Assembly (NCBI GenBank): GCA_963804165.1
Contig: CAWDPO010000017.1
Span: forward strand, 32,001 to 96,000
Direction of reading: 5' to 3'
DNA from: an uncultured delta proteobacterium
Lineage (GTDB): Bacteria > Desulfobacterota > Binatia > UBA9968
DNA: 64,000 nt
Numbering within the stretch: position 1 is the stretch's first letter; each line of letters starts with the position of its first letter. The notes beneath the pieces were generated by a model. The model was not told the DNA's origin and searched no databases. It saw only the letters and a list, made by a program, of their open reading frames with translations. Positions 16,790-58,253 of the stretch are shown here, piece by piece. The position numbers were made by a program, and so were the translations under genes.

Positions 16790-16960
16790 TCAACTCCACA
16801 ACTTCTTGCTCGCGATCGCCGCGCCGTCGCGCAGGGCGCGGCACTTGGCTTAGGCGATTTGTGGATGGACGCCGCCGCCCAGACTACCGTCGGTGCTGAT
16901 CATCAGCGTGTTTTCGCCCGTGGAGCTCTGGATGAGATATGGCACGTCGGTGGTGCTGGT
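16790..16960 (-). pseudogene. Degenerate 3' fragment of a MetE-like gene (paralog of 54500..55705)
   Basis: About 55 bp identical to 54496-54550, then increasing divergence including an in-frame stop. Confidence 0.8.
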
Positions 16961-17110
16961 CGGTAGGCGGGTGGCGGGCTACGGCTCTTTCGTCAGAACA
17001 CCTAGGCCGAAATTCAGCACACGTTAGAGAATTTCCACGCTGGTCGGTATTCCTATTAGCACGCTGAAGGGCGATTGCTACCGTCGGAACAACCGCCCCT
17101 CCCGTATCAT

Positions 17111-18796
17111 CTATGTAGTAACTACATCGATGATCGCCGGCTTGCCGCTTCGATTGGCTTCGAGGCCGCGCTTCAGCGCATCCTGGACCTTCTCCGGATC
17201 CGTCACCGTCTCGCCGTAACCGCCGACGGATTCGGCGACCTTCACGAAGTCGGGGGCGTTGATGTGGGTGCCGTGGTAGAGATCGATTTCCGCGGCGATC
17301 CCGTCCGGATACATTTTCTGGTGCATGCCCTGCATCGCGGCGTATTTCTTGTTGTTGAAGATTACCGCCATGATCGGCAGCTTGTAATCGCGCGCCGCGC
17401 CGAGGCTGCCGAGCGCCGGGTTGTACAGGAACGCGCCGTCACCGATCAAGGTCACGACCTGCCGTTCCGGCTTCCCCAGCTTGATCCCGAGCGAAAGACC
17501 TAATCCCTGTCCGAGACCGCCCTGGCGGGTGAACAGGCACTGCGGGTCGTTCCATACGAGGTGTTGCCGCAGGGTGGCCGTGTGCGTGGTGACCTCGTCG
17601 ATGTAGATCGTATCTTTGGGCATCACGGCGTTCAGTGACGCGCACAGCCACACCGGATCGATCGGTGTTTTCTTGCGCGCCGCCGCCTGCGCCGCATTCC
17701 TTTTCTCGACGAGCGCGTCGTGCGCCGCGGCGAGCTCCTTGCGTCGTGCTTCCACCGCTGCCTTATCGACCGTCGCCGCATTCGCCAGGTCGCGCAGCGT
17801 CTGCGCGGCATTGCCTTCCAGGTACATGTCGGCCTGATGGCTTTGGTAAACCATCGCCGAGTTGTGCGGCGCTTCGTCCACCATGGCGACCACGGCCTTG
17901 GGCGGGCGGTTGCTCGGCGGATACCAGGGCGCGCGTGCGCGGACGACGATCGCGAGGTCCATGTCGTTCCAGAACGGTTTGATGTCGGTTCCCTGGTAGA
18001 GCGGATGGTCCTTGGGGAAGTTGGCGAACAGAGCGCCGGGCTTCTCGACCAGCGGCAGAGCGAACTTCTCGCACAGCGCCACCAGGGCCTCGTAGGTCTC
18101 GACCTCCTGGCCGGCGCCCTCGGTGAGCACGACCGGGCGCTTCGCCTTGGAGAGCTGGGCGGCGAGTTTTTCGATATCTTCCGGCGCTGTCAGCACGCGC
18201 GGCGCCGGCGGAACCGTGCGCGGATTAGTGGGAGGCGTCCAGCCAGCCATCAGCGTTTCCGTCGAGACGGAGAGATAGGTCGGTCCGGTCGGTTGCCGCT
18301 GCGCCAGTTCGCCGGCGCGGATAATGCTTTCATAGAGCGTGTAGACGCTGCCCGCGACCGAGGAGTACTTGACGATCGAATCGACCAGGTTGGTCGTGCC
18401 GCTGACGATGCTCAAGTTGTTCATCCACTGGGCCCCCGGATCGAACTCCGGCTGCTCGCCGTAGGTCATCGACTCGCCGGAGATCACCACCATTGGGACC
18501 CCGGCGACAAAAGCGCCGTGCATCCCCATGGCACCCTGCAGCAGGCCGGCGCCCGCGTGCAGCAACACGGCCTGCATCCGCCCCGTGGCCAGCGTGTAGC
18601 CCGCCGCGATGTCGACGGCGAGTGTTTCGTGCCACACATCCAGGAGCTTGGGACCGTCCTTTTTCCAGTGGATCTGGTCGGCCATGGCTTCCCACACGGG
18701 CGCCCATTCGGTGCCTGGCGAGGACAAGATGTATTCGACTCCGAGCTTACGAAACGCTTCGACTAAGGCGCTGCCGCCGTCGAACTGATTTTTCAT
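17111..18796 (-). CDS. Thiamine pyrophosphate-dependent enzyme (acetolactate synthase/benzoylformate decarboxylase family)
   Basis: SPGTE, HETLAV, and the TPP-binding motif GDGAFLYN...FNN. Confidence 0.9.
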   Translation of the reverse strand: MKNQFDGGSALVEAFRKLGVEYILSSPGTEWAPVWEAMADQIHWKKDGPKLLDVWHETLAVDIAAGYTLATGRMQAVLLHAGAGLLQGAMGMHGAFVAGVPMVVISGESMTYGEQPEFDPGAQWMNNLSIVSGTTNLVDSIVKYSSVAGSVYTLYESIIRAGELAQRQPTGPTYLSVSTETLMAGWTPPTNPRTVPPAPRVLTAPEDIEKLAAQLSKAKRPVVLTEGAGQEVETYEALVALCEKFALPLVEKPGALFANFPKDHPLYQGTDIKPFWNDMDLAIVVRARAPWYPPSNRPPKAVVAMVDEAPHNSAMVYQSHQADMYLEGNAAQTLRDLANAATVDKAAVEARRKELAAAHDALVEKRNAAQAAARKKTPIDPVWLCASLNAVMPKDTIYIDEVTTHTATLRQHLVWNDPQCLFTRQGGLGQGLGLSLGIKLGKPERQVVTLIGDGAFLYNPALGSLGAARDYKLPIMAVIFNNKKYAAMQGMHQKMYPDGIAAEIDLYHGTHINAPDFVKVAESVGGYGETVTDPEKVQDALKRGLEANRSGKPAIIDVVTT

Positions 18797-19127
18797 GGTT
18801 GGTCTCCTCGAATGGTTTCTTGTCGGTGTATTATCTCATGCCTGAACGTGCAAGACCCCTGATAGCAATTCTGGAGCAGCGCGGTCGCGCAATCCTCGAT
18901 GGTCGAATCTTTACCTAGACATTGCTGCAAGCGCTGGAGCTAGGCCCGGAGCTCAGACTTTTGCTTCTCGGCAACGGAGTGTGTCTGTGCCGCTCGCCCT
19001 AGGCCGTCCGTCCGCGGCTTTTTTGTAGAAGCTGATGCATCTGAAGTTATGGCACCATTAAAGAAGGCCGATTAGAGAAATCGTGTTGCGACTCGGGCCA
19101 ACTCGGAGTAAAGCTCGGTCGTGATCT

Positions 19128-21894: not shown

Positions 21895-23019
21895 ATGCCA
21901 ATGTCGAGAGTTGTGTTGGCGGCTTGTGCCGTATTGCTGTTGCTGGCGGATGCGCACGCTCAATCGGACTGGAAGAAGGAATGGGAAAAAACCCTCGAAG
22001 CGGCGAAGAAGGAAGGCCAAGTGAACGTCTACATCGGCGGCTGGGAAGCCGTCGTCGAATCGGGCGCGTTTCAAAAAGCCTATCCCGAAATCAAGGTGAC
22101 CTGGGTCGGCGGCCGCGCTGGCGAGATCGCCAAGCGCATTCTCGCCGAGCGCCGCGCGGGAAAGTTCCTCGCCGACGTGAGCAGCGAAGGCATCGGCTCG
22201 AACTACCGGGCGCTGCACTTGGCCAAGAGCTTCGATCCGATCAAACCCGCACTCTTGCTGCCGGAGGTGACGGACGAATCGCTCTGGTATCAGGGCAAGC
22301 ACCGCTACATCGACCCCGAAGGGCAGTTCGTCTTCCGTTACGTCGCCACGCAGCAGCAAGGAAACATCGCTTACAACAGCAAACTCGTAAACCCGAAGGA
22401 GATTCGTTCGATCTGGGACCTCGTCGACGCCAGATGGAAAGGCAAAATCATCGCCCGCGACGTGCGCGTCCCCGGGCCGGGGAGCGCGCCGATGCGTTTT
22501 TTCTACCTTCACCCGGCGATCGGTCCGGCTTTCATCAAGAAGCTGTTCGGTGAGATGGACGTGACGCTCTTCCGTGACTTCCGCCAGAGTATCGACTGGC
22601 TCGCGAGCGGCAAAGCGAGCCTGTGCTTCTTCTGCGCGGACACCGACAAGGCGAAACTCCAGGGACTGCCGGTCGACGAGTTCGTGAATCTCAAGGAAGG
22701 CGCGCCGCTCGTCACGCAATACGGCACGCTCGCGCTCTTGAACCGCGCGCCCCATGCGAATGCGGCGAAGGTTTTCATCAATTGGTTTCTCTCGCGCGAC
22801 GGCCAGATCGCGCTGCAAAAATCTTTAGCTAGGAGCGCCGCCGAGACGGCCGATTCACTGCGCATCGATATTCCAAAAGACGACGTACAGCCGCAGAACC
22901 GCCGCGCCCCGGGAGTCAACTATCTCGACCTCGACAGCCAGGTCGAATGGACGGAGATGAAGCCGGTGCTGGCAATTTTCGAAGAGGCGCTCGCGAATGC
23001 GGAAAAACAAAAAAAGTAA
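21895..23019 (+). CDS. ABC transporter extracellular solute-binding protein (Fe3+/AfuA-like)
   Basis: Signal peptide; AAKKEGQVNVY; DLVDARWKGKI; APHANAAKVFINWFLSRDGQ. Confidence 0.85.
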   Translation: MPMSRVVLAACAVLLLLADAHAQSDWKKEWEKTLEAAKKEGQVNVYIGGWEAVVESGAFQKAYPEIKVTWVGGRAGEIAKRILAERRAGKFLADVSSEGIGSNYRALHLAKSFDPIKPALLLPEVTDESLWYQGKHRYIDPEGQFVFRYVATQQQGNIAYNSKLVNPKEIRSIWDLVDARWKGKIIARDVRVPGPGSAPMRFFYLHPAIGPAFIKKLFGEMDVTLFRDFRQSIDWLASGKASLCFFCADTDKAKLQGLPVDEFVNLKEGAPLVTQYGTLALLNRAPHANAAKVFINWFLSRDGQIALQKSLARSAAETADSLRIDIPKDDVQPQNRRAPGVNYLDLDSQVEWTEMKPVLAIFEEALANAEKQKK

Positions 23020-23101
23020 TTGAACCGATCATGGAATCTGCGTGTCCTTCGTTTTGCTTTGCCATGATTGAAGGCTTACATGGCTTGCGCAAATTCTAGA
23101 A

Positions 23102-23196
23102 TCACCACGAAGACACGAAGAGCACGAAGGGAAGATCAGAAAAAGTTTCGGCAACTTCTTTGTCCGAACTTCGTATCCTTCGTGCCTTCGTGGTGA
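23102..23196. repeat. Long intergenic hairpin of 9-nt CACGAAG units
   Basis: tcaccacgaagacacgaagagcacgaag ... cttcgtatccttcgtgccttcgtggtga. Confidence 0.8.
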
Positions 23197-23214
23197 GAAT
23201 CTCGATCCGACACA

Positions 23215-23284
23215 TCAGGTAGGGCGAAAAACGCACACGCATTTGCTCGAGTTGAAGATGTGACACTCTGCCCAAGCCAGGATT
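23215..23284 (-). pseudogene. 70-bp 3' tail of the LigB-like gene at 32709..33747
   Basis: Near-identical to 32709-32778 (ILAWAEC.IFNSSKCVC.FRPT*). Confidence 0.85.
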
Positions 23285-23347
23285 AAAGATTTTTAAGGCT
23301 GTAAAGCTCGACGGATTAGTTTTTAAAATTACTGCGTGACCGGAAAA

Positions 23348-24499
23348 CTATAGGATGTCCCCATCGCGCGCCCTAGGAGGAAATAACGCTACGCACTTGC
23401 TGGAGTTGAAAATGTAGCTCTCAGCGTAGGTCAAAATTTGCGCTTCCCGCCCTTCCATAGCACCTGCCAGGCAGATCCAATTTCGCATCTCGTGTTGTCC
23501 CGATGAACGAAGTTTATCGGGATCCAGATTTCTCCACTGGTCGAATCGGCCGGCCTTCAGTTGGTCATAGTGCTCGCGATCGGACTCCACATCGCCCCAC
23601 AGAAAGCCATGCAGGTCGGTGAGCGAGGCATGGGACCAACTGGACGATCCGATGATGCACGCGCGGTAAGGGCTCGCTGCAATAATCTCTGCCACCGCCT
23701 TCCCCAAATCGTAGCAACGCCATACCGGGGGAGCCTGTGGAGGCAAGACGCCTCCTTTAGACAATATTTTGTCCACTTCCGAGCGATCGGGCAAGCGCCC
23801 AACCCATTCGTTCGCTCCCAGAGCGGGCATGCGCATGTCTTCCCCATAACAGTTGACCTGGAACGGAATTAGAGGATAAGGAAATCCCTTCCTGTCCCAG
23901 TCGAGGTAATCCAAAGTGAAAGTGAAGGCGTGGCCCAGCCCGGTCGAGTGATGGAACTGCGACGACCAACCTACATCGAACCCCTTATTGACCAGTTCGC
24001 CGGCCAGTAGGGTTCCAATCTTTTTGCTGCCTGCGATTCTCGACTGCTGGGGGGGACGTTCCATCGGAATGCCGAGGTTTGACACACCCGTGTTCAGAAT
24101 TCCATTGGGCCCGATTTCATTGCGACGTCCGCCTTTCGCGCCACCGATCGCGAATTCATCGAACGCGTAGACACAAAAGGGCGGCAGAATATCCTCTTTG
24201 AAATTCTCGTACTGATCGTCTCCGAACATCAAAACAAAATCCGGATTGAAATGGTCCAGAGCCTGCCGCGCCGCGCGAAACCCGTTGATCACTTCTTCAC
24301 GGTGTCGCCGCGCAGCAGACACTCCTTCGTCGTTCCCCCATTCCGCTCTCATCTTCGCCGGCCAGTTCTTCGGATCCCTGAGGACCGCGGGAGTCTTCGC
24401 GTTCCTCAGGTTAATGCGAAAATAAACGTTGGCCATAGTCTCATCGGTAAACCGCATATGTGGGCCGTGGGGGCACCCGATACCAAGAATCTCGCCCAT
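23348..24499 (-). CDS. LigB-like (class III) extradiol ring-cleavage dioxygenase
   Basis: MGEILGIGCPHGP, FGDDQYENF, GHAF, SSSWSH and GQHEMRNW motifs. Confidence 0.75.
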   Translation of the reverse strand: MGEILGIGCPHGPHMRFTDETMANVYFRINLRNAKTPAVLRDPKNWPAKMRAEWGNDEGVSAARRHREEVINGFRAARQALDHFNPDFVLMFGDDQYENFKEDILPPFCVYAFDEFAIGGAKGGRRNEIGPNGILNTGVSNLGIPMERPPQQSRIAGSKKIGTLLAGELVNKGFDVGWSSQFHHSTGLGHAFTFTLDYLDWDRKGFPYPLIPFQVNCYGEDMRMPALGANEWVGRLPDRSEVDKILSKGGVLPPQAPPVWRCYDLGKAVAEIIAASPYRACIIGSSSWSHASLTDLHGFLWGDVESDREHYDQLKAGRFDQWRNLDPDKLRSSGQHEMRNWICLAGAMEGREAQILTYAESYIFNSSKCVALFPPRARDGDIL

Positions 24500-24529
24500 G
24501 ATGAGGAAATCCCCCTCTAATGCTCCGCT

Positions 24530-25654
24530 TTAATTTGGTAAGAGGCTAAGCGCGCTTTTCGTCGCCGCTTTCGCCGCTGCCTCGGTATCTGCCGAGATCT
24601 GCTCCACCTTGTTCCACTGTTCCAGAGATAGATTGTCTTTTGCCGCTATAGCCCCGAAGTTGGCCGTCCAGCGGGCGTCCACGTCCCACCGACGAGTGGG
24701 CTGGCTCAGTTCTTTTGTCCAGACTTCCTGTCCTTCTTTGCTGAGCAGCCAGTTGACGAACACCTTGGTGGCATTGGGGTGGGGGCGATTCTTAATGATC
24801 GCCAAAATCCCCGACCCGGCCGTGCCATAAGTTCCTTCTTTGAAGATCGGAAGCGCCTTTAGGGGCATACCGGCTTCGACAAAGGAGCGGAACCCATAGT
24901 AATTCATGCCAATGGTCACGGCCACTTTCTCCCTGGCAAGCGACTCTGCCAATACTCGCGCATTTCGAGAGAGCTGGAGGTCTTGGGTTACAAGGCGCTT
25001 CAAGTAGTCCTCGCCTTTGTGTTTCCACATGTATTCCCAAGCTTGCGCCCCTGCGCCGGGCTGGTGCGGATCGTACCAACCAATCTTGCCTTTCCATTTT
25101 GGATTGAGGAGATCGTCATAAGAGCGAAGCTCCTCAGCGCTCGCAGATTTTGTGTTGTGCCAAAAGTTAGAGACCAAAAAGGCTGAAAAGATATAAGTGA
25201 ACCGCTTCTCCTTATCGATAGCCATATGTCCGCCCCACCAGTTTTTAGGCTCCTTAACCTCAGGAAGAATGAGATTGGGCTCAATCGGATCGACAATGTG
25301 TCCGCCAACGAAGCCGGATATCATGGACCCGGCACCCCCGATGTGGATGTCAAAGTAACGCACACCGGCTTGAAACTCGTCACTGATCCTTCTCAGCATG
25401 GCTGTAGCAGTGCCTGCGACAAGTTCCAGATCGATGCCTGGAAACCGCTGCTCGAACGCCGCCTCTAGATGCTTCCTCAAATCAGAACTAGCAGGAATGG
25501 AAACCACGACATTGCCCTCTTTCTTGCCCGCCTCCACAACCTCCTTCCAACTCTCCTGCGAAGCCCCCCAACTCTTCTGGCAGAAGCCTAAAAATAGGAT
25601 CGCCAAAGCGGTAACACAAACAACCATCTTGGGTCGTTTAGATGAACGGACCAT
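24530..25654 (-). CDS. ABC transporter extracellular solute-binding protein
   Basis: Signal peptide; AGKKEGNVVV; DLLNPKWKGKI; PHPNATKVFVNWLLSKEGQ. Confidence 0.85.
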   Translation of the reverse strand: MVRSSKRPKMVVCVTALAILFLGFCQKSWGASQESWKEVVEAGKKEGNVVVSIPASSDLRKHLEAAFEQRFPGIDLELVAGTATAMLRRISDEFQAGVRYFDIHIGGAGSMISGFVGGHIVDPIEPNLILPEVKEPKNWWGGHMAIDKEKRFTYIFSAFLVSNFWHNTKSASAEELRSYDDLLNPKWKGKIGWYDPHQPGAGAQAWEYMWKHKGEDYLKRLVTQDLQLSRNARVLAESLAREKVAVTIGMNYYGFRSFVEAGMPLKALPIFKEGTYGTAGSGILAIIKNRPHPNATKVFVNWLLSKEGQEVWTKELSQPTRRWDVDARWTANFGAIAAKDNLSLEQWNKVEQISADTEAAAKAATKSALSLLPN

Positions 25655-25706
25655 AGAAAGTCCTCTTTCTTTAGAATGGATTTACATTAACTCGACGAAT
25701 TTGTTT

Positions 25707-26885
25707 TTATGCTTTCATTCCGTCGACTGGATCGCTCGTCCGCGCAGTATTCTCAAAATATTTACGTAACTGGACGAGGGAGGCATCGGGTCTGAAGAAC
25801 ATCTCCGGCGCCGAATAGTCCAAGTGTTCCACGATCCACTTATCCTGTCCCTCGTTAAACCACTTGTGAAACACCCAACGATGCCATAGCCAGTATTGCA
25901 GTCTAAAGGCGAGCGCTTTTAAACCATGATACTTACCGGCCAACATCTGAAAGTTGCGGGTGTGGTTCGCATCGATCGGGATCGAATAGCGAATATGGGA
26001 GTAGTAGGTGTAGTGGTTGACGATAATGCATGGAAGGCGGACACCGGCAATCATGGGTTTCCCCTTGGGGCCGAATTTTTGGCGAACTTTTGCCAGGGCT
26101 TTGCGCAGCCAAGCGTGACGTGGCCAGAGGCCAAAGCCCGGATAATTTGCCTCAAAGCCAAAAGGGCCCCGGCGCCGTTGAATCAGGTATTTGCCTTGTA
26201 CTTCACTTTCCACCTTCCCAGCCCATGCCGGCGGAAGGTTAAACTGAGTTCGCCACCGCAGGCTGTACCGATGAACATATGTAGCATGGGAAGCGTCGTA
26301 GCCGTTTTCAACTGCAGGCCGCCAGTTGCTGTTCCAGACTGACGTGACCGCCTCAAAAACATATTCCGGTTTCAACAGCTCTTCCGGAACGTCTTCCTCA
26401 AGTGGCGGCGGCTTGTCATCTCCCATGTAAACGTAGATGACCCCGTTTCTCTCCTCGACCGGATAGCTGCGAACGCCTTTTCCCTTCTTACCCACAACTG
26501 CCGACTCAGGCCCGTCCGTTAGAGCTGCCATCAACTCTCCGTCGCCCAACCTGTACGTCCAACCATGATACGCACAAGTGAGCGTGCCTTCCGTCCAGCA
26601 CTTGCCTTCGGATAGTGGCATACCGCGGTGTGCACAACGATCAAAAAGCGCATAGGGCCGACCGTTGCCTCGGATAAATACGAGTTTCTCGCCAAGCAAC
26701 GTTACCGATTTAGGTTTCTCTCCAAGCTGCCTGGAAAGGAGAGCGGGGTACCAGTAGTGACGAAACCCCAATTCTGCGGCGCCATAACGAGTCCCTGTCT
26801 TTGCTTCCATCTGTTCGTCGGGATCTGTCACATTTTCCAGCTCCCCGACAGTTCCATCATGCGTTTGACGGAGTGTCTTAGCCAT
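25707..26885 (-). CDS. Rieske non-heme iron oxygenase alpha subunit (CarAa/2-oxoquinoline monooxygenase-like)
   Basis: Rieske CAHRG...CAYHGW; mononuclear iron motif NWRPAVENGYDASHATYVH; LGFRHYWYPA. Confidence 0.85.
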   Translation of the reverse strand: MAKTLRQTHDGTVGELENVTDPDEQMEAKTGTRYGAAELGFRHYWYPALLSRQLGEKPKSVTLLGEKLVFIRGNGRPYALFDRCAHRGMPLSEGKCWTEGTLTCAYHGWTYRLGDGELMAALTDGPESAVVGKKGKGVRSYPVEERNGVIYVYMGDDKPPPLEEDVPEELLKPEYVFEAVTSVWNSNWRPAVENGYDASHATYVHRYSLRWRTQFNLPPAWAGKVESEVQGKYLIQRRRGPFGFEANYPGFGLWPRHAWLRKALAKVRQKFGPKGKPMIAGVRLPCIIVNHYTYYSHIRYSIPIDANHTRNFQMLAGKYHGLKALAFRLQYWLWHRWVFHKWFNEGQDKWIVEHLDYSAPEMFFRPDASLVQLRKYFENTARTSDPVDGMKA

Positions 26886-26980
26886 TTTTACAACCCCCGT
26901 ACTTTAAGTACTTTCCCCTTTTTATCCCGCTGATAACTACGATCGCTATATAGCAAATTCACGTGGCTGAACTAGTGACC

Positions 26981-48151: not shown

Positions 48152-48339
48152 GAACAAGGCTGAGCATACACGAGAAGTCGAGCGGCCAAAGTGATTTGTT
48201 TAGTTATCCAGCCGGACCCTGCAGCCTACACACGGGATACCAACATCCGGCAAGATAGAATCCAGATTCAGGCCTGACCCTACCACTCCAGGCCTGACCC
48301 TACCACTCTGCCCCTTTATCTTAATCTTCGGAAAGAGCC

Positions 48340-49260
48340 TTAACGCGTATCGATCGCCCGATTGTAATAGGAGAGATCTACGTACTTCTCCGCCGGTGGC
48401 AGCGGCGGCTTAAGGTATCCCATCTCGGCGCGCAGGGCGACAACGGATTTCAACCCCGGAAGATTCAATTCCGCTTTCGGATATAGACCGTAGTCCGAAT
48501 CCAGCAGGACATCTAAGGTCTCTTCCGCCACTTTGTCTTCAAGGCCGTTATGTGTAGCAAGAAGCTCCAAACAGGAGGCACGATTGTGAATGTCAAAACA
48601 CCATTCCGTCGCCTCGACATAAGCGCGAATATAGCGAACCAGCAAATCCCGATTCTTTTCAGCCCAAGAGCGCTTGGCCGCGCCCACAGTTCCCTGATAG
48701 CAGGAAACGATCTGATCGCCGCGCGCCAGCAGGTGGCAGCCTTGCGCCACAGCGTTGCCCGCGAACGGCGGCAAAAGCATGGTGCCGGCAACTCTACCCT
48801 CCAACAATGCTTGATAGCGCCGGTCGACGCCGCCGATCTCGACGAATTTGTAATCGTCGGGACCGAAGCCATTCGAGCGCAGCAGCTTTTCCAGGATGAA
48901 AACGAAACCGCTCGCGCGCGCGTCGACGGCCAGTTCTTTCCCGCGTAGCGACTCGACGGTCGTCATCCCCGGCGCTCCGACGATGCTCAAGAGGCCGCTA
49001 TGGAGTCCCATAAAGATAAAGAGGCTCGAAGGACCGCCGCCGAAGTCTTCCACATCGGCCACAATATCGTCAGCGCCCGTGTGGCCAATCTCGAATTCCC
49101 CCTTCCGCAAAGCGTCGCTGATATAAAGCGAGCCCGGCGTATAGGTTATGTCGATATCGAGACCATGCCGCGCAAATATTCCCTGCTCCCGGCCGGCGTG
49201 TACCGGAAGATTGTAGCCTGCCCGGAATTGGATCAGTCTAAGTCTTGTAAGACTGGCCAT
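48340..49260 (-). CDS. NMT1/THI5-like periplasmic-binding-fold protein with no signal peptide
   Basis: GIFARHGLDI, LRGKELAVDA..SGF and WAEKNRDLLVRYIRAY. Confidence 0.8.
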   Translation of the reverse strand: MASLTRLRLIQFRAGYNLPVHAGREQGIFARHGLDIDITYTPGSLYISDALRKGEFEIGHTGADDIVADVEDFGGGPSSLFIFMGLHSGLLSIVGAPGMTTVESLRGKELAVDARASGFVFILEKLLRSNGFGPDDYKFVEIGGVDRRYQALLEGRVAGTMLLPPFAGNAVAQGCHLLARGDQIVSCYQGTVGAAKRSWAEKNRDLLVRYIRAYVEATEWCFDIHNRASCLELLATHNGLEDKVAEETLDVLLDSDYGLYPKAELNLPGLKSVVALRAEMGYLKPPLPPAEKYVDLSYYNRAIDTR

Positions 49261-49278: not shown

Positions 49279-49910
<632 letters not shown>

Positions 49911-49950: not shown

Positions 49951-51396
49951 TCAACAGCAGGGGGGTTGTGAGCGGTAGTGCGCCGCGACCGCGTGCTCGA
50001 GTTCGCCGATCGCCGACACGAGGCCGGAATTTTGCTGCATGTCGGCGCGAAGCCGCGCCAGCATGTCGTCGCGCATCGCCGGATAGTCGATGCCGAGCAC
50101 CTGGCCGTCGCGCACGACGGAGCGGCCCGCGACGATCAGCTCGTGGATGTGGCGCATGGTGGTCCGCGAGAACAAAAGATCCTGCGGATCGAGATCGGCG
50201 CGGAGCCGCTCGTGGTCGACCGCATCCCAGTCGAGAACCAGGATGTCGGCCGGCATGCCGGGCGCGAGCGCGCCGCCGTCGTCCTTGTTGGTGACCGAAA
50301 GACGGCCATTTTGGAACGCCATGCGCAGCATCGATGGGCGATCCACGTCGGTGGTGAACGCCACGCCCTGATGCAGCAGATGCGCGAGCCGCATCTCGCG
50401 CAGCGCATCGTCGTCCTCGTCGAACGTCGAGCCGTCGAGGCCGAGCGCCACGCGGCAGCCGCGCTTCACCATCTCCTTCAGCGGGGCGACGCCCGAGCGC
50501 AGATGCAGATTCGAGCTGGTGTTGACCGAGATGGTCGCGCCGCGCGCGGCGATCAGCTCCAGCTCATCGGGTCGCGCCCAGGTGCAATGGGCGAGCGTCA
50601 GCCGCGGGCTGAGGAAGCCGATCCCGTCGAGGAATTTCAGGATGCCGCCCGGATAATTGGCGTCGAGCCAGGCCCGCTGCGTGCTGGTCTCCAGGAGGTG
50701 CATGTGAATCCGGCGGCCGGTGCGCTTCGACGCGTCCGCGATCGCTTCCAGAAGCTCATGCGTGCACCATTGCACCGCCTGCGGGCCATACTGCACGTCG
50801 AACATCGGATTGGCGGCCGCCCCGGCCACCGCATCGACCAGCGCGATCTGCTGCTCGACCGGCAGCGGCGGGCGCAGATAGCGCTTCTCGACCTCCGCGC
50901 GCGCCTGCGGCGAAAGCGCATCGAGGATCGGCTCGGACGGTCCGTACACCAGCGGGTTACGGTTGCGCATCGCGATCGCAAAGCCCACCCGCACGCCGAC
51001 GTCGCGCGCCGCGCGCGCGACCTCGGCCACCTCGGTCGGCAAATCAGTGAGACTCTGGACGCGCGTGTAGTGCACCATGACGGCCGCCGCGCCGCCAAGC
51101 GCGCTGCGCGACAACGACACCGCGCCCGCAAGATAAGGATCGACCGACGGCAGCAGCGCCAGATAAGCGATCCAGGTTTCCAGCGGCTTGCCCGCGCCGC
51201 CATAGGCCGAGGTCGACGTCACGCGCGCATGATCGTGAGCGTTGGTGAGCGCCGGCAGCGCCAGCAGGCGCCGGGCGGCGCCGGCCCTGGCCGGCTCGAC
51301 CGAGACGATGCGATCGCCGTCGATCCGGATAACGTGCGCGCCCGCGGCCGGCGCAGTGGCATCCGGCTGGATGTGGGAGCACGTCAATTCACGCAT
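49951..51396 (-). CDS. Amidohydrolase_1 family metal-dependent deaminase/chlorohydrolase-like protein
   Basis: PALTNAHDH, IHMHLLE, LAHCTW, ALGLDG and G.LAPGMPADI. Confidence 0.9.
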   Translation of the reverse strand: MRELTCSHIQPDATAPAAGAHVIRIDGDRIVSVEPARAGAARRLLALPALTNAHDHARVTSTSAYGGAGKPLETWIAYLALLPSVDPYLAGAVSLSRSALGGAAAVMVHYTRVQSLTDLPTEVAEVARAARDVGVRVGFAIAMRNRNPLVYGPSEPILDALSPQARAEVEKRYLRPPLPVEQQIALVDAVAGAAANPMFDVQYGPQAVQWCTHELLEAIADASKRTGRRIHMHLLETSTQRAWLDANYPGGILKFLDGIGFLSPRLTLAHCTWARPDELELIAARGATISVNTSSNLHLRSGVAPLKEMVKRGCRVALGLDGSTFDEDDDALREMRLAHLLHQGVAFTTDVDRPSMLRMAFQNGRLSVTNKDDGGALAPGMPADILVLDWDAVDHERLRADLDPQDLLFSRTTMRHIHELIVAGRSVVRDGQVLGIDYPAMRDDMLARLRADMQQNSGLVSAIGELEHAVAAHYRSQPPCC

Positions 51397-51455
51397 TGGC
51401 ACCGGCCCGGCAAGCGAAAACCCGCAACCCGATGATGCGGGCTCTCTCATTGCGG

Positions 51456-51725
51456 TCAATTGGACAGCACCGCCGGCATCCGATCGGCCTTGGCCGGCAG
51501 GAAGTCACGGCTGAACACGTCGGCGGCTTGGGCACGCGCGGCAGCTCGAACGACTCCGCGATGGTCGCTGCCGCCGCCGCCATCCGCTCGTCGCTCACGT
51601 CGCCGATGCCCAGCGAACGCGACTCGGGGGTGTCGATCAGCGTCTTGTAGACATAGAGCATGCGGCGCTTTTCGATGTCCTTCTTGATCAGCGCCTCCCT
51701 CTGCGCGAGAAGATCGATCGCGGCA
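51456..51725 (-). pseudogene. 3' fragment of an NMT1/THI5-like binding protein cut at the oriIS
   Basis: AAIDLLAQREALIKKDIEKRR...GIGDVSDERM...DVFSRDFLP (frameshift near 51525). Confidence 0.75.
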
Positions 51726-51727
51726 CT

Positions 51728-51847
51728 GTATAGGAAATTTAAACCACCTTTTTTTTCTGGCCTGAGCCATATCGCCGGACCGGCGAGTTGTCAATTTCTT
51801 TTCTGTCTGATGAAATTCGCAGTTTTGCTTCGGTCGGCTTGGGCGGC
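51728..51847 (-). mobile_element. 120-bp IS91/ISCR oriIS-only element
   Basis: Highly similar to 49433-49546; ends GGTGGTTTAAATTTCCTATAC. Confidence 0.85.
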
Positions 51848-52001
51848 AGGCCGAGTAAGGGGTCACAGGCCGAATAAGGGTCTTGGATATTGCTCTTTCT
51901 CGTGGTTTGCCGGATTGCGCCTTGCAAAAGGATTGAGGTTGAGTTGCTTGTGTATGATTTCTGGGCTTGAAGGCGCTGCTGCTGCACTAGAACTAGAACG
52001 C

Positions 52002-52053: not shown

Positions 52054-52605
52054 TTAGGCGGCACCGCGAAAGTTGGGGCGTTTCTCTACCACCATGGTAC
52101 CCGCCTCGCTGTTGTAGCGGCCGCGCGGGATGTTCTCTAGATTTGTCCCAGTGACGCGGATGAAACGCCCGCCGGCGGGGTAGGCGATGGAGTGGATGGC
52201 GCGGTTCTGAAAGATGCCGGCCTGGCCGCGCTCCATGCGGTAGGTGTTCGCCTTTTCTATTGTCGCTTTGCCGGGAACGGAGCCGTCATCCGTACGCTTC
52301 CACTCGCTCATTTCGGTATGCTTGACCGCCTGGCCGTAAATTGCCCAGGAATCACCATGATCGTGGGGTCCGCCGGCATATTCCCGGTCCATGATATGCG
52401 CCAGGATCTGGAAGCCTAGCTCCGGGTCCTCATAGAGTAGATTGGCGCCGACGCTGGCGCTCGGCCCGCAATTGGCGGCGACGAAATCGTCGTTCATCAG
52501 CAAGTCCTGCAATCTTTTTCGCACCGTTTCGCGCCCCGCCGGACCTTGGTCGGCCTTGAGGATGCGACGGCAGTCGGCGGCGAACTCATCGAGCGTGTAA
52601 GCCAT
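52054..52605 (-). CDS. Cysteine dioxygenase-like cupin protein
   Basis: LYEDPELGFQILAH, PHDHGDSWAIYGQ and AIHSI. Confidence 0.75.
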   Translation of the reverse strand: MAYTLDEFAADCRRILKADQGPAGRETVRKRLQDLLMNDDFVAANCGPSASVGANLLYEDPELGFQILAHIMDREYAGGPHDHGDSWAIYGQAVKHTEMSEWKRTDDGSVPGKATIEKANTYRMERGQAGIFQNRAIHSIAYPAGGRFIRVTGTNLENIPRGRYNSEAGTMVVEKRPNFRGAA

Positions 52606-52672
52606 GCTATTTCTCCTGACGTATCGGAAATTCAATCAACTTGTTTTCTGACGCGAGCTTTTCGTGATTTAC

Positions 52673-54192: not shown

Positions 54193-54499
54193 TGAAGTTC
54201 TCCCGCGCTGAAATTGAGCCCGTTATATTCAGGCCGCGACGAACCTGTCAATGAAATTCCACTAGGTCTTAAGGATCGTGGATGCCTTGGAAAGCAGCGC
54301 TCGGCCCGCTGGGGTTCGATCGCTCAACAAGTTTTCGGATATCTATCAGACTCGGCTCGAATAGATGAATCGACCGATCTAGGTGCGCGTTGTGCACCGG
54401 GGCAGCCCACTCCGCTTCGGTAAAAAGCAAGTCCAGTGTAAAACTTTTACCTGTAGACTTTCTTCCTTTTGTTTCGCTCCCGCACACGCACTTTTGAAT

Positions 54500-55705
54500 T
54501 CAACTCCACAACTTCTTGCTCGCGATCGCCGCGCCGTCGCGCAGGGCGCGCAGCTTGGCCCAGGCGATTTGCGGATGGACGCGGCCGCCTAGGCCGCAGT
54601 CGGTGCCGGCGATGACGTTTTCCCGGCCGACGATTTCAGCGAACGTGATGATGCGATCGGCCACCAGTTCCGGGTGCTCGACGAGATCGGTGGAGTGGCT
54701 GACGACGCCGGGGATGAGGATTTTTCCGGCGGGGAGTTTCACGTCGCGCCAGACTTTGAATTCATGTTCGTGACGGACGTTGCCGGCTTCGACCAAGTAC
54801 GCCTGGGCGTTGACACGGAGCATGACGTCGACGATGTCGCGCAGCGGAAAATCGGTGGTGTGCGGACCATGCCAGCTGCCCCAGCAGATGTGATAGCGCA
54901 CGCGATCGACCGGGATGCCTTCGAGGGCGTGATTCAGAATTTCAACCCGCTGCGACGCGTAGCGCCGGTACTCCTCGACGCTTGGCTGGGGATCGAGCAT
55001 GTCCCAGGCGCCGGGAAGACCGGGGTCGTCGAGCTGGAGGATGAAGCCGGCGTCGACGATGGCGCGATACTCTTCGCGCATCGCATCGGCAATCGCTTCC
55101 AAGAATTTCTCGGTGGTCGCATAGTAACTGTTCTGATCGCGGCAGAACATCTCCAGGCTGCCGGGCGCGATGGCGCTGACGAAGGCCTCTTCGACGCCGG
55201 CGGCGTTGGCGGCGAGCTTCAAGTTGACGAGCTGGTCGCGCAGAAACTGTTGCGCGGTGTAAGCGATCGGGCCGGTGCAGGTCGGGCGCAGCGCGGCGGT
55301 GCTGGGCGCACCCAAGCCGGTGTCGGCGTAAAATTCGGCGAACTCGCGCTGCTCCCAGCGCACGCCGACGATGCGCATCGGCGCGCCGGGTTTAGCAGTA
55401 TCGGGTGCAATGGTCTGTGCCGAAGTCGGCGTGAAGCCGGAGACGCGGTCGAAGATGTAATTGCCCCAAGCGCCCCGGTCGGTGGACGCGCGCATGGGTT
55501 TGCCGAACTCGCCGTCGTTGGGAATATCGATGCCCATGTCTTTCTGCGTGCGCACGACTTCACCGATGGCCGAGCGCAGCCGCGTTTGCAGCGCCGCTTC
55601 GTCCTCCGCCGTGACGGTTTTTTTCGCCCACATGGCGCGCAAGTCCGCCGGCCGCGGCAGGCTGCCGACATGGGTGGTAAGAATGCGTTCAGTGCTTCGT
55701 TTCAT
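54500..55705 (-). CDS. Cobalamin-independent methionine synthase II (MetE-like, single barrel) family protein
   Basis: TTHVGSLPRP, DGEFGK, QLDDP, Zn ligands HICWG, and GTDCG. Confidence 0.9.
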   Translation of the reverse strand: MKRSTERILTTHVGSLPRPADLRAMWAKKTVTAEDEAALQTRLRSAIGEVVRTQKDMGIDIPNDGEFGKPMRASTDRGAWGNYIFDRVSGFTPTSAQTIAPDTAKPGAPMRIVGVRWEQREFAEFYADTGLGAPSTAALRPTCTGPIAYTAQQFLRDQLVNLKLAANAAGVEEAFVSAIAPGSLEMFCRDQNSYYATTEKFLEAIADAMREEYRAIVDAGFILQLDDPGLPGAWDMLDPQPSVEEYRRYASQRVEILNHALEGIPVDRVRYHICWGSWHGPHTTDFPLRDIVDVMLRVNAQAYLVEAGNVRHEHEFKVWRDVKLPAGKILIPGVVSHSTDLVEHPELVADRIITFAEIVGRENVIAGTDCGLGGRVHPQIAWAKLRALRDGAAIASKKLWS

Positions 55706-56997: not shown

Positions 56998-57043
56998 GGG
57001 ATCTCCGTCGGCAAAAGCATTACCCAACATAGGCCGTTCGATC

Positions 57044-57687
57044 CTAGGCCGTCTTGGCAAACCCTTCATTCACTTCTTTCTCGTAGGCGAGCAGCTTCTT
57101 GACGCTCGGGCGCTCCTGCATGCGCTTGAAATGCGCCATGACGCTGGGGAAGCCTGAGATGTCCACCTCCAACTGGGTGGCGCGGCGGCAGCACCAAAAG
57201 AAATGCGCGTCCGGGGCGGTGAAATGGTCGAAGAAGTACTCACGCCCGACCAGCATATCGTCGCCGATCCGGAAGTTCTCGTACAGAGCTTCCGTGGCGA
57301 ACTTGATCACGCTGTCGGACGCGCCCGTTGCGTCGCAGACTTTGGGCGGGTTGTTGATCCGGCTCAGATACGGGTGAATGCCGCTGGCACACCAGCCGTG
57401 CAGCGAGATCGCTTGCAACTCGTCCCACGGATCGGCGGGCAGGATCTTCGCGTCTGGAAAGGTCCGATGGACCCATTGATGGATGGCGACGTTCTCGGTC
57501 AGGATCTTGCCGTCGACCACGAGCAAGGGACCTTGTGCTTCGGGTTGATCTTCAGATACTCGGGCGACAAATTCTGCCGCTTGCGGTAATTGAGCGGGCG
57601 GACCTCGAAGTCGGCGCCCGCCTCGGTCAAGGTGACATAGGGAGCGAGCGCGCAGGTGTTGGGGGCGTAATAAAGAACAATTTCCAT
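57044..57687 (-). CDS. Glutathione S-transferase; frameshift near 57530
   Basis: MEIVLYYAPNTCALAP...YLKINPKHKVP, then LTENVAI and FTAPDAH. Confidence 0.85.
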
Positions 57688-57824
57688 TCACGTCTCCTCA
57701 TTGGGTTGATTGATCAATTGCGAATCTAGTACCCGCGTGTGGTGAGTGCAACCCATCCAAGAGCGCAACGAAGCAGAGGTACGTTGCAACCAAGTTGAGG
57801 GAATTCTGCCAGCTTTAGATCTGA

Positions 57825-58253
57825 TCAAGCAAATATCCGCCAGTCACCGTTTACTTCCACACGACTTGATCACCGACGGCACGATCTCTAAGGGCAGATC
57901 TTTTTCCGCTTTCCAAAAACTATGCACGCCCGGCGCCGAAACGGGTGATGCCGCTTTTCGGCGCGGGTTTCATGGCGCGGAAGCCGGGCATGATCACTTC
58001 GGCGTAGACTTCCGGACTGTGGTCACGGCTGTCTTTGGAAATCTCGAAGAGAAACGGCGGCACAGGTTTTACGTTCGCGCCTGATAGTTCGCGGGTGTGG
58101 CCGATGAAGTGATTGACCAGCGCATCGGTTTCATCTTGGTTCATTTTGAATCTTGCCGCACTCACGCGCGCGCCCTCGGCAAGAGAATCGGTAATGTTGT
58201 GCGTGACGATATATGCGGCCTTTGAACTGCGTCCGGTTCTTTGCTTTCTCCCA
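57825..58253 (-). pseudogene. Frameshifted 3' third of a paralog of the gene at 59380..60745
   Basis: ITDSLAEGARVSAAR...PPFLFEISKDSRDHSPEVY aligns with 59385-59805 but carries indels. Confidence 0.85.

Follow-up and report, generated by a model that had tools for sequence, protein, structure and literature searches.

The window, the 64-kb stretch of DNA analyzed here, lies on contig C17 of a 7.5-Mb draft genome, in which genes were called with a rough ORF model. Abhydrolase, MetE-like, LigB, binding-protein, amidohydrolase, aldolase and GST genes are found in it together with stranded 3' ends ("tails") of genes whose intact copies lie nearby (Table 1). Self-BLASTN of the window recovered every gene-tail pair of the original prediction at its predicted place. 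These pairs are 54-434 nt long and 83-96% identical, and the stranded copies carry indels and in-frame stops. Whole-genome BLASTN did not find the tails to be genome-wide multi-copy repeats: each has two or three copies, all on C17 with the sole exception of one GST tail on C28. Some smaller fragments were also re-examined. The label of a RelE tail found no support, neither 58351-58641 nor 58702-59028 having a match in Pfam or NCBIfam, and 5' fragments proposed at 36466 and 49942 were absent from both censuses described below. The RAYT 5' fragment expected near position 400 is the head of a Y1 transposase gene whose parent, a Y1_Tnp match, lies at C8:138782-139483. An internal fragment at 46178 derives from a gene with a full copy at C42:121059-121775.

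Table 1. Features of the window (positions in nucleotides of the 64-kb stretch)
Feature	Position	Strand	Evidence or remark
Stranded 5' head of Y1 (IS200/RAYT-like) transposase gene	360-476	+	BLASTN, 73.5% over 117 nt
Abhydrolase/gene X tandem array	12549-16844	-	self-BLASTN and tblastn
Junction copy R1: MetE-like tail (16793-16948) running into start of intact abhydrolase gene	16632-16948	-	
Junction copy A: end of intact binding-protein gene, hairpin (23102-23196), LigB-B tail	22996-23284	+	alignment with 32470-32778
9.2-kb block between junction copies A and B	23285-32469	.	Pfam scan, repeat boundaries, oriIS matches
oriIS remnant	30185-30318	-	nhmmer, E=6.5e-17
oriIS remnant (32126-32256) and IS91-family transposase stub (32349-32483, last ~44 aa)	32126-32483	-	
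Junction copy B: stranded binding-protein tail (32470-32523), hairpin, LigB-B gene end	32470-32778	+	self-BLASTN, alignment
MetE-like near-tail fragment, third copy (aa ~364-394 of 401)	37615-37711	-	upstream of gene 36531-37499
oriIS remnant	39092-39208	-	nhmmer, E=2.9e-17
Internal gene fragment (aa 144-183 of 238)	46178-46269	-	87% DNA, 90% protein identity
Stranded GST tail (46345-46431) and 40-nt downstream flank	46305-46431	-	
oriIS remnant	46490-46606	+	nhmmer, E=5.9e-31
245-bp tandem duplication: last 30 nt of aldolase gene and ~148-nt element	47395-47877	+	
oriIS remnant (49431-49555) and IS91-family transposase stub (49656-49904, last ~83 aa)	49431-49904	-	
oriIS remnant upstream of amidohydrolase gene 49951-51459	51726-51853	-	nhmmer, E=9.8e-36
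Partial oriIS terminus, weak match	52621-52659	-	nhmmer, E=7.7e-4, window-only search
Junction copy R2: tail of intact MetE-like gene (54500-55705), then abhydrolase 5' head	54348-54628	-	
GST gene tail, second copy of 87-nt repeat	57043-57129	-	94.5% over 127 nt to G018:C8
Displaced original 3' half of 59380 gene, with indels	57827-58264	-	
Cargo block, 1.1 kb, small ORFs of no known family	58265-59386	.	
Incoming replacement 3' half inside intact 59380 gene (59380-60210)	59387-59816	-	84% identical to 57831-58264

Tandem duplications and duplicated junctions

Two abhydrolase tails, 14614-14805 and 13461-13745, correspond by tblastn to aa 285-348 and aa 240-348 and belong to an array in which a block is repeated after each tail: abhydrolase (15798-16799), X (14890-15801), tail, X' (13718-14614), tail and X'' (12549-13457). 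Self-alignment pairs 13708-15992 with 12538-14805 (76%) and 14888-15974 with 12547-13635 (87%). The aldolase pair (47640-47877 versus 47395-47633, 96.3%) includes two copies of the ~148-nt element (47484-47631 and 47728-47876) with inverted repeats at their bounds, and copies of the inverted-repeat arm also border Y1 transposase genes on C30 and C46. The abhydrolase tail with gene X (two rounds) and the 245-bp aldolase unit have the form of simple tandem duplications; the MetE, GST, LigB, binding-protein and 59380 tails do not.

The MetE-like tail (16755-16896 versus 54463-54606, 86.8% over 144 nt; third copy aligned at 37625-37711) has the same layout upstream of an abhydrolase gene in the same-genus genome G018 (contig C2). 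Its parent adjoins the reciprocal junction, which the original prediction had missed: an abhydrolase head at 54348-54548 that matches aa 3-71 with 45% identity (tblastn, E=7.5e-9). About 60 nt beside the MetE stop are nearly unchanged between the parent and the copy at 16 kb. The linkage of the third MetE fragment with gene 36531-37499 is also found in G015 (contig C9). The MetE repeats (16.8 and 54.5 kb) interleave with the GST repeats (46.4 and 57.0 kb), and this order cannot be obtained from two simple nested insertions.

The LigB tail (23213-23284 versus 32707-32778, 94.4%; 72 nt of a minus-strand gene) and the binding-protein (SBP) tail (32470-32523 versus 22996-23049, 83.3%) proved to be the two ends of a single ~310-nt duplicated convergent junction, a relation not noticed in the original prediction. 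The 9.2-kb block between its copies encodes LigB-A, a binding protein, a Rieske oxygenase, an NMT1-like protein, a cupin, an abhydrolase and an amidohydrolase, and contains two oriIS remnants. At its far end, a transposase stub is joined, with microhomology, to the final 24 nt of the binding-protein gene (32470-32476). The LigB-B gene beyond (32709-33822, minus strand) is split in two frames.

The stranded GST tail (46345-46431 versus 57043-57129, 93.1%) is followed by 40 nt of the flank that follows GST in related genomes, and tail and flank together align with G014 and G022 along their full 127 nt (85.8%). Its second copy ends a GST gene (57044-57691) with one apparent frameshift near 57524, and the junction from there into the amidohydrolase gene is conserved in G018 by synteny. 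GST tails occur three times in the genome with nearby breakpoints, leaving a tail of 87 nt in the window and one of ~97-115 nt on C28.

An empty site at the 59380 gene

The 59380 gene (57831-58264 versus 59387-59816, 84.1%) is the only case in which an outgroup gives the direction of the event. The order 60224, 59380, GST, amidohydrolase, MetE is common to the window and G018, and contig C8 of G018 holds an empty site: the 1.1-kb cargo is absent and only 35 nt separate the stop of the 59380 ortholog from the GST start. In its native stop, ribosome-binding site and GST start the stranded copy agrees with G018, whereas the 3' half of the intact gene does not, and similarity of the intact gene to the native end ceases 12 nt before the native stop. 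These alignments identify the stranded tail as the original end, since displaced; the intact gene carries a 3' half that came in together with the cargo.

Remnants of an IS91/ISCR-like element

The oriIS ends that had been proposed are genuine: they are what remains of an IS91/ISCR-like HUH element. An nhmmer profile search found seven decayed matches in the window, with E-values between 1e-36 and 8e-4, and six of the 12 matches in the genome fall there; the seventh is weak and came from a window-only search. The copies terminate in ...TTTCCTATACAG. A shared motif, TTCCTATAC, occurs at 13 places in 12 of 79 related loci, mostly ~200-450 nt past the transposase match, and the sequences thus have a conserved terminus a few hundred nucleotides downstream of a transposase gene. 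The ~83- and ~44-residue stubs match the C-terminal ends of 489-535 aa proteins in other genomes, where full-length relatives carry Y2_Tnp and Zn_Tnp_IS91. The stubs themselves have no Pfam domain, PF04986 has no match in the window, and neither a catalytic or 5' part of the transposase nor an intact element, circle or recognizable terIS was seen there.

Of the seven termini in the window, six point toward a gene start at a distance of 16-330 nt. Abhydrolase gene 29258-30127 starts 58 nt downstream of the terminus at 30185, NHL-repeat gene 37780-39057 (longest-ORF start) 35 nt downstream of that of 39092-39208, and the aldolase gene 30 nt downstream of that of 46490-46606; the weak match at 52621-52659 sits between the stop of an SBP_5 gene (52673) and the start of gene 52054-52605. 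Among 21 termini scored in other genomes, nine face a start, eight face an end and four have no ORF. The remnant at 46490-46606 contains a predicted outward promoter-like site, TTGACA-16-GATATT. The TTGACA is kept in six of eight aligned copies, and only the copy at 46538-46565 passes a promoter scan. Flanks past the termini differ (TATT, CCCA/TGCC, TGCC, AAAC), with no shared tetranucleotide beside oriIS in the window or in related loci; the target tetranucleotides reported for the family, CTTG, GTTC and GTCC, are not seen there.

That tails abut oriIS ends, as had been claimed, holds for two of them. The binding-protein tail is fused on the transposase side of a remnant, and 58 nt of low-complexity filler separate the GST tail from the inner side of oriIS 46490. 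For seven of the window's nine tails, no oriIS remnant lies less than 1 kb away. A third fusion-like case is found in the related genome G014, where a MetE tail lies ~40 nt from an oriIS remnant.

Polarity of gene fragments in the genome

Stranded fragments were counted in two censuses and compared over 105 non-overlapping 64-kb tiles of the genome. The predicted excess was confirmed, with the window ranking first or second in both. In the protein-seeded census it had 11 loci and came first for tails (seven tails, no heads; four tails in the runner-up), against tile maxima of 13 loci overall, five local loci and four tails. The DNA-seeded census found 10 fragment loci in the window, eight with a parent at most 64 kb away, compared with tile means of 2.15 loci (maximum 9) and 0.68 local loci (maximum 5).

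The 3' bias is local. Over the whole genome, tails and heads were nearly equal in the protein-seeded census (114 versus 107), but fragments at most 64 kb from their parent comprised 37 tails and 11 heads (p=0.0002), and 32 and 11 with the window removed (p=0.002). Distant fragments had no 3' bias (77 tails, 96 heads). Of the local tails, 33/37 were co-oriented with the intact parent and downstream of it; 10 of 11 local heads lay upstream. The DNA-seeded census concurs, with 43 tails against 24 heads and 34 of the 43 tails downstream and co-oriented.

Applied to an IS91/ISCR-like HUH element, the original prediction would have the element lie with its terIS side against gene 3' ends and scatter copied tails by one-ended read-through. 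Several observations point this way: the concentration of oriIS remnants in the window, the local 3' bias, the tails at the transposase-side fusion and near remnants in the window and G014, and the nearby breakpoints of the three GST tails. HUH transposase genes also occur in 4 of 27 parent-tail blocks, against 0.45 expected (0 of 2000 permutations). Two of the refuting conditions set out in the original prediction, no 3' bias across the genome and no link with elements, were thus examined, and neither refuted it. One-ended transposition amounts to 1-14% in IS91 and IS1294, according to passages of one report (PMC13181058). As a general account of the tails, this reading is nevertheless rather unlikely. 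Three tails are plain tandem duplications, the stranded 59380 copy is the native one and not a transduced copy, and two stranded tails are conserved in other species. A downstream, co-oriented position is not what transposition to new sites predicts, there is no overall 3' bias, and the window has no recognizable terIS, no catalytic part of the transposase and no common target tetranucleotide at its oriIS flanks.

Neutral decay offers another route to an excess of tails, if duplicates break at random and 5' heads, with a promoter and start codon and the potential to make harmful truncated proteins, are purged faster. The tandem duplications, and the indels and in-frame stops of stranded copies, are what decay would leave. 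We nonetheless consider this improbable: distant fragments remain unbiased even at 70% identity or more (33 tails, 34 heads), and the excess falls in the class with a non-repeated block between parent and fragment (22 co-oriented downstream tails versus 10 heads) and not in the tandem-like class (12 versus 9).

Equally doubtful is that tails are kept as working cis-elements of the next gene (a promoter, ribosome-binding site or coupling region) and resemble upstream gene ends because they stem from old operon junctions. The conserved MetE tails upstream of the abhydrolase gene and gene 36531, in G018 and G015, would fit, as would the nearly invariant ~60 nt by the MetE stop and the GST-tail pieces ~150-170 nt upstream of abhydrolase and Sel1 genes in G003, G022 and G015. 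A co-directional gene follows within 150 nt for only 5 of 37 local tails, however, against a baseline of 2240 of 5864, and retention for the sake of a downstream gene is therefore not general. The window's LigB, binding-protein, GST and aldolase tails lack such a gene, and a search of the window found no Rfam RNA family.

An assembly artefact is hardly credible: the draft (46 contigs, 81% complete, 5% contamination) might contain chimeric joins or strain mixtures, and three reading frames broken in the window are unbroken in relatives' contigs, but like junctions occur in independent assemblies of other species, the gene order from 60224 to MetE is found in G018, and copies that are not 100% identical are not assembler duplicates.

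A diversity-generating retroelement was rejected, with mismatches on all four bases in five of seven pairs and the genome's three RT genes outside the window. Adenine mismatches are absent from the LigB and aldolase pairs; in the GST pair they make up four of six, a small number.

Discussion

On balance, we favor the view that the stranded tails are seams, left as blocks were repeatedly inserted and duplicated in a very plastic accessory, mostly aromatic-catabolic, island. As marks at the edges of inserted or duplicated blocks, they would be the footprint of genome patchwork and not of a new copying machine. The seams are partly linked to an HUH rolling-circle (IS91/ISCR-like) element.

Two processes can be discerned. 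In insertion with tail displacement, an incoming block would bear a homologous 3' fragment of a resident gene and recombine homologously with it, in the simplest case as a circle through one crossover. The gene would remain complete and be followed by the cargo and then, farther downstream and still co-oriented, by the displaced tail. Comparison with the empty site shows just this arrangement at the 59380 gene. The GST tail and the binding-protein/LigB junction probably arose likewise, and their blocks have an inner edge at or near a 5'-truncated IS91/ISCR-like element. The second process is ordinary tandem duplication of a unit beginning inside the upstream gene, and accounts for the abhydrolase tail with gene X (twice) and the aldolase tail with its small inverted-repeat element. 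The 3' polarity probably reflects survivorship, because only events that spare the resident gene and its own promoter persist. Some tails may also hold the ribosome-binding region of the next gene and be kept across species. Several tails recur in related species and are therefore old. Some points weigh against this view: the MetE and GST repeats interleave, the window shows no intact element, recognizable terIS or circle, and most of its tails are not close to an oriIS remnant. Cargo blocks elsewhere in the genome consist mostly of ordinary genes without a recombinase, which also counts against circle insertion.

Displacement of gene ends is familiar from integration sites inside genes and from rhs loci, where an incoming 3' end replaces the resident one, which persists downstream and co-oriented. 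Duplication of 3' ends at gene integration sites uses a site-specific integrase, and rhs displacement concerns toxin tips. Here the genes encode ordinary enzymes and the contig has no tyrosine integrase; an integrase-borne island was rejected, as none of the genome's 21 PF00589 matches lies on C17 and the window has no tRNA gene. Helitrons, eukaryotic RepHel HUH rolling-circle elements, capture flanking host fragments through missed termination. An HUH rolling-circle element is common to both, but we saw no helicase-fused Rep protein, and the fragments of the window lie beside their parents, not inside element copies.

The closest known arrangement is that of complex class 1 integrons with ISCR1. 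In both, an IS91-like element lacking its terIS side is fused or adjacent to a host segment (binding-protein fusion; GST at 58 nt), oriIS faces a variable captured block, the host segment recurs past that block as a partial, co-oriented second copy (9.2 kb for binding-protein/LigB, 10.6 kb for GST), and several units can stand in a row. ISCR1 units are modeled as circles from aberrant rolling-circle replication that integrate by homologous recombination, in passages of two reports (PMC7707992, PMC3575428). The window differs in being chromosomal DNA of an uncultured soil lineage with catabolic and transport genes as cargo instead of resistance genes, in duplicating gene 3' ends and a convergent junction instead of the 3'-CS, and in holding decayed stubs only, with no integron.

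IS91, IS801 and IS1294 co-mobilize DNA beyond terIS when termination is missed, as passages of PMC13181058 describe. Judged from full-length relatives of the stubs, our element would share with them the HUH Y2 transposase family and distinct oriIS and terIS ends, whereas the window has remnants only, with no catalytic domain or recognizable terIS and none of the reported target sequences next to the oriIS termini. For cIS91sdpA of Sphingobium herbicidovorans MH, passages of PMC5737581 place a conserved oriIS ~170 nt downstream of the transposase gene, beside catabolic genes, and propose one-ended transposition and a circular form. An IS91-family oriIS beside catabolic genes is common to both; those are intact plasmid elements with a circle seen by sequencing (passages of PMC5737581), whereas for the window we infer the process from remnants.

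Possibly, though we put this forward only tentatively, gene gain by a polar route is common in this soil lineage: small circles carrying cargo and a short gene 3' fragment, made at least in part by HUH elements (IS91/ISCR-like Y2 and Y1 types), would enter by homologous recombination and give the genome-wide 3:1 excess of displaced tails that lie downstream and co-oriented.

The window reveals how an uncultured soil bacterium assembled a large island of accessory genes: stranded ends mark the block boundaries, and one case tells in which direction the event ran. Elements of the ISCR-like kind are known chiefly from antibiotic-resistance integrons; here one is found on a chromosome, among catabolic genes, in a lineage that has received little study. 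The excess of local co-oriented 3' tails, 37 to 11, is a measurable footprint that could mark gene gain by insertion with tail displacement. If the polar circle route is real, such tails could date and map gene gain in genomes without recognizable mobile elements.

Stranded gene fragments in the window

The assembly is a 7.5-Mb draft of 46 contigs (56% G+C, 81% completeness, 5% contamination), in which our own hexamer model called 7651 genes. The genome is rich in paralogs, with 24.7% of bases having a BLASTN match elsewhere in the assembly, and the window ranks near the top in paralogy, exceeded by only 6 of 318 overlapping tiles. Pfam searches showed that accessory genes are dense in the window; these encode amidohydrolases, alpha/beta hydrolases, solute-binding proteins, LigB-type dioxygenases, a Rieske oxygenase, a GST-like protein and a MetE-like protein, among others. 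The G+C content of 50001-52000, which covers an amidohydrolase gene between two oriIS remnants (oriIS being one end of an IS91/ISCR-like HUH rolling-circle element), is 65.7% compared to approximately 56% for the genome, and would fit a foreign origin. A reverse-transcriptase gene located 10 kb before the window on the same contig (C17:21344-21985) and another on contig C12 (16762-17403) have identical scores and 441-aa frames; both are probably copies of one retroelement.

The original prediction held that the window contains an excess of stranded 3' gene ends, here called tails, with intact paralogs (parents) nearby. We took two censuses of the genome in which a fragment was considered stranded if tblastn placed <60% of the parent protein's length at the locus, a rule that drops split genes and full paralogs. 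The DNA-seeded census reduced 747 candidates to 280 loci, and the 266 that are not at contig ends comprise 99 tails, 108 stranded 5' ends (heads) and 59 internal fragments. The window contains 10 of these loci, compared to a mean of 2.15 and a maximum of 9 for 105 non-overlapping 64-kb tiles. Eight window loci have the parent within 64 kb, against a tile mean of 0.68 and maximum of 5. The protein-seeded census began with 1254 loci and yielded 399 fragments (114 tails, 107 heads and 178 internal), with 11 in the window, a number exceeded by one tile (13). The window loci in this census include seven tails (tile maximum 4) and no heads, and six have a parent within 64 kb (tile maximum 5). Both censuses therefore indicate that the excess is real. 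A 70-aa BamD-like N-terminal fragment at 5765-6052 (NCBIfam E=4.5e-8, positions 5-77 of 239), which has an 87% identical copy on contig C46 (402922-403210), may be another stranded head.

The 3' bias is confined to fragments near their parents

A 3' bias was also expected across the genome. Tails and heads are similarly frequent overall (114 vs 107), but the bias was found for fragments close to their parents. Protein-seeded fragments within 64 kb of the parent include 37 tails and 11 heads (p=0.0002), or 32 and 11 once the window is subtracted (p=0.002), and those with the parent within 5 kb include 24 tails and 8 heads (p=0.007). In contrast, distant fragments in the same census show no 3' bias (77 tails vs 96 heads). 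At ≥70% identity, the corresponding numbers are 29 tails vs 9 heads for local fragments and 33 vs 34 for distant ones. The local tails are co-oriented with and downstream of the intact gene in 33 of 37 instances, and heads are upstream of it in 10 of 11 (protein-seeded); the DNA-seeded census shows the same geometry for 34 of 43 tails and for 19 of 24 heads. The intervening block is repeated after 12 of the co-oriented downstream tails and unrepeated after 22, compared to 9 and 10 for heads. Thus, the tail excess belongs to the non-tandem-like class.

Paired tails in the window

Self-BLASTN of the window recovered all of the tail pairs that had been named from the sequence, and they were found at the protein level too. 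Each tail has two to three copies genome-wide, all on the window's contig except for a third GST tail at the start of contig C28. With so few copies in 7.5 Mb, the tails are not high-copy MITE or REP sequences. A convergent junction of ~310 nt is duplicated at 22996-23284 and 32470-32778, and its opposite ends are the LigB and binding-protein tails. At 16.8 kb, the MetE tail runs on into the start of an abhydrolase gene, and the MetE gene at 54.5 kb has a stranded abhydrolase head after it; this pair is therefore a single duplicated operon junction that gives one tail and one head. The aldolase tail sits inside a 245-bp tandem duplication whose unit includes an element of ~148 nt with inverted repeats at both ends. 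An arm of this element also flanks Y1 transposase genes on contigs C30 and C46, and the element is followed by TTGACCCCTTTGGCTGTG in three tandem copies of 16-18 nt each. The 20-mer CAGGCCTGACCCTACCACTC forms a perfect tandem pair at 48269-48308, just past the stop codon of an NMT1-like gene (48340-49260, minus strand).

Remnants of an IS91/ISCR-kind element

A repeat of ~120-350 nt occurs at 49.4, 32.1, 51.7 and 46.5 kb, and an open frame on the minus strand at 49.4 kb corresponds to a typical IS91-family transposase end. By tblastn, this stretch matched 2878 plasmid records; among 15 matches listed, four were annotated as "IS91 family transposase", one as "transposase" and one as "hypothetical protein", and nine carried no annotation. 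Relatives are encoded in 220 of 594 candidate stretches from a species-representative genome collection, and the best 80 of the 220, corresponding to 79 loci, were retained. Full-length relatives are 489-535 aa in length, and the two that were scanned both contain Y2_Tnp and Zn_Tnp_IS91 domains. The window carries leftover transposase C-termini (stubs), which align to the last ~83 and ~44 residues of these proteins. The rest of the transposase was not found in the window, which also contains no Y1/Y2 transposase gene. The oriIS DNA is 83% identical at one related locus from a Binatia MAG.

The oriIS copies terminate in TTTCCTATACAG, and the motif core occurs at 13 places in 12 of the 79 loci, mostly ~200-450 nt past the transposase match, and passages in PMC5737581 and PMC6218425 locate IS91-family oriIS ends at that distance. 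A profile made from eight copies has seven matches in the window, and the genome-wide search at E<0.01 returned 12 matches, six of them in the window. Together, the profile and the stubs bear out the proposal that these ends are remnants of an IS91/ISCR-kind element. Target tetranucleotides are reported for IS91-family members in a passage of PMC13181058, and these are absent beside the oriIS termini. TTGACA is conserved in the oriIS region, and only one copy passed a promoter scan. A connection with the genome's other IS91-family elements was rejected: their flanks have no window match at E≤1e-6, and their proteins match the stubs only at E>0.3. The Y2 transposase genes of those elements directly adjoin a tyrosine-recombinase gene at all eight loci; they form a subfamily of two-gene units, which sets them apart from the ISCR-like stubs in the window.

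Locations of oriIS profile matches, REPIN-like elements and tandem copies of TTGACCCCTTTGGCTGTG in the window, and of Y2 transposase loci with adjoining tyrosine-recombinase genes on other contigs of the genome
Feature	Sequence	Positions	Remark
oriIS profile match	window	30185-30318	
oriIS profile match	window	32126-32256	
oriIS profile match	window	39092-39208	
oriIS profile match	window	46490-46606	
oriIS profile match	window	49431-49555	
oriIS profile match	window	51726-51853	
oriIS profile match	window	52621-52659	weak
~148-nt element, REPIN-like	window	47484-47631	bounded by 18-19-nt inverted repeats
~148-nt element, REPIN-like	window	47728-47876	bounded by 18-19-nt inverted repeats
Three tandem copies of TTGACCCCTTTGGCTGTG	window	47865-47916	16-18 nt each
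Y2 + tyrosine recombinase	C10	36014-37742	
Y2 + tyrosine recombinase	C23	252139-253875	
Y2 + tyrosine recombinase	C23	260030-261766	
Y2 + tyrosine recombinase	C41	58817-60553	
Y2 + tyrosine recombinase	C41	1693-3217	
Y2 + tyrosine recombinase	C5	2903-4629	
Y2 + tyrosine recombinase	C18	37620-39360	
Y2 + tyrosine recombinase	C30	155426-157043	

HUH elements and the tails

At 32.47 kb, a transposase stub joins the final 24 nt of a binding-protein gene through a microhomology of a few bases, and beyond these lie a hairpin and the gene LigB-B. The intact binding-protein gene ends in the second junction copy, which lies at a distance of 9.2 kb and breaks off 72 nt into LigB-B. At 46.4 kb, the inner edge of another oriIS remnant is 58 nt away from the GST tail; the GST gene itself ends with the second copy of this tail, at a distance of 10.6 kb. 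The sequence between this tail and the remnant (46432-46489) is low-complexity filler with runs of CT, C and A. Both sites have the same order of host segment, truncated element, oriIS, variable block and second partial host copy. This is the layout of ISCR1-linked class 1 integrons as outlined in passages of the literature, where integration of a circle from rolling-circle replication by homologous recombination is proposed for ISCR1-linked units (PMC3575428, PMC7707992). The same-genus genome G014 provides a third such case, in which a MetE tail (locus L134, 6022-6143) and the inner side of an oriIS remnant (5869-5981) are ~40 nt apart. The remaining seven tails of the window have no oriIS remnant within 1 kb. 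Proximity was rejected as a statistical link within the window, where two of nine tails within 100 nt is no more than chance by a rough estimate that confines tails and oriIS to ~10 kb of non-genic gaps.

Genome-wide, a Y1/Y2 transposase gene lies inside 4 of 27 distinct parent-to-tail blocks, compared to 0.45 expected (0 of 2000 permutations). The number rises to six blocks (0.61 expected) if oriIS remnants are counted as well, and outside the window an HUH gene is present in 4 of 23 blocks, compared to 0.30 expected (p=0.0005). None of nine head blocks contains an HUH gene. On contig C6 (99386-102006), the sole gene between two copies of a gene tail encodes a 316-aa protein with Y1_Tnp and a DnaA C-terminal HTH; an intact 370-aa gene is on one side, and a stranded copy of its last ~70 codons (76% identical) is on the other. 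Approximately ten similar Y1 genes of ~320 aa are found in the genome. Other cargo, scanned as 20 block genes from 11 of the 27 blocks, is ordinary: NMT1-like and other binding proteins, amidohydrolases, a methyltransferase, TauE, MgtE, asparagine synthase and a BrnT-type toxin.

The 59380 tail is a displaced original

The minus-strand gene at 59380-60210 (the 59380 gene) allows the direction of an event to be read against the same-genus genome G018. On its contig C8, genes 60224, 59380, GST, amidohydrolase and MetE are contiguous with 87-95% protein identity (67% for the amidohydrolase C-terminal segment), and the 59380 ortholog ends 35 nt ahead of the GST start. The stranded window copy (57827-58264, with indels) has the native last codons, ribosome-binding site and GST start in common with G018. 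The 3' half of the intact gene ceases to resemble G018 12 nt short of the native stop, and the next 1.1 kb is absent from G018. Because the native end is on the stranded copy and not on the intact gene, the stranded tail is the displaced original, which contradicts its interpretation as a transduced copy. By this comparison, the intact gene holds an incoming replacement 3' half together with cargo. Integration of a circle bearing a 3' gene fragment by single crossover would be predicted to generate this arrangement.

Recurrence of tails in related genomes and reads

Related genomes G022 and G003 have the gene order MetE, GST, abhydrolase, X, Sel1, X, in which X is the gene that follows abhydrolase in the window array at 12549-16844. 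The window GST tail and its flank match the GST-to-abhydrolase junction of this order over all 127 nt (85.8%), and the intact GST-to-amidohydrolase junction matches G018 (94.5%). The window therefore contains one intact junction type and the remnant of the other. A MetE tail is found upstream of the abhydrolase gene in G018 (contig C2), as at 16.8 kb, and upstream of gene 36531 (36531-37499) in G015 (contig C9), as at 37.6 kb. Pieces of the GST tail are also found in G003, G022 and G015, upstream of abhydrolase and Sel1 genes. These occurrences show that several tails predate the species, and their recurrence in independent assemblies counts against an assembly artefact. At locus L131 of G003 (contig C30, 8005-9070), ~1 kb separates GST from a 62-nt stranded GST tail (92% identical) just upstream of an abhydrolase gene, which is tail-displacement geometry in another species.

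In public read data, the best run contained 0.24 of the words sampled from 45.9-55.8 kb, and 21 runs from 16 soil/sediment studies each contained a share, mostly about a fifth. Four runs examined gave short contigs of relatives with 90-99% likeness, not of this assembly. One run carries, after the GST stop, the same flank as that behind the stranded GST tail in the window. Three window genes (SBP_5, amidohydrolase and GST) are split between two frames. The relatives' contigs have one base more at 53143 and 57524/57525 and one fewer at 56400/56401, coinciding with the break sites of these genes, and the three frame breaks are likely to be assembly indel errors or very recent pseudogenes.

Origin of the tails

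We considered general causes for the tails. Retention of a tail for the benefit of the next gene fits the window's abhydrolase and MetE tails, but it is not supported as a general cause. A co-directional gene follows within 150 nt of only 5 of 37 local tails (opposite for 7, nothing for 24, none for 1), compared to 2240 of 5864 past real stops. Polarity could also stem from selection for oriIS orientation. Six of the seven window termini face a gene start 16-330 nt away, but 21 termini in other genomes do not support this explanation, with nine outward, eight inward and four unscored under a crude ORF rule. Nested insertions fail for the whole island, because the MetE and GST repeats interleave in an incompatible order. 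A DGR was ruled out for the window repeats, as was an integrase or tRNA island. No known RNA family reached its gathering score in the window, and the papers found on Binatia and transposases, judged by title and abstract, do not concern this subject.

The original prediction envisioned polar copying of gene tails by an HUH element, and it is partly right. An IS91/ISCR-kind HUH rolling-circle element did shape the island and is tied to some of the tails, but these results do not demonstrate a dedicated polar tail-copying process. The tails are best read as seams, left by block insertion with tail displacement and by tandem duplication. Their polarity would come from which events leave genes intact.
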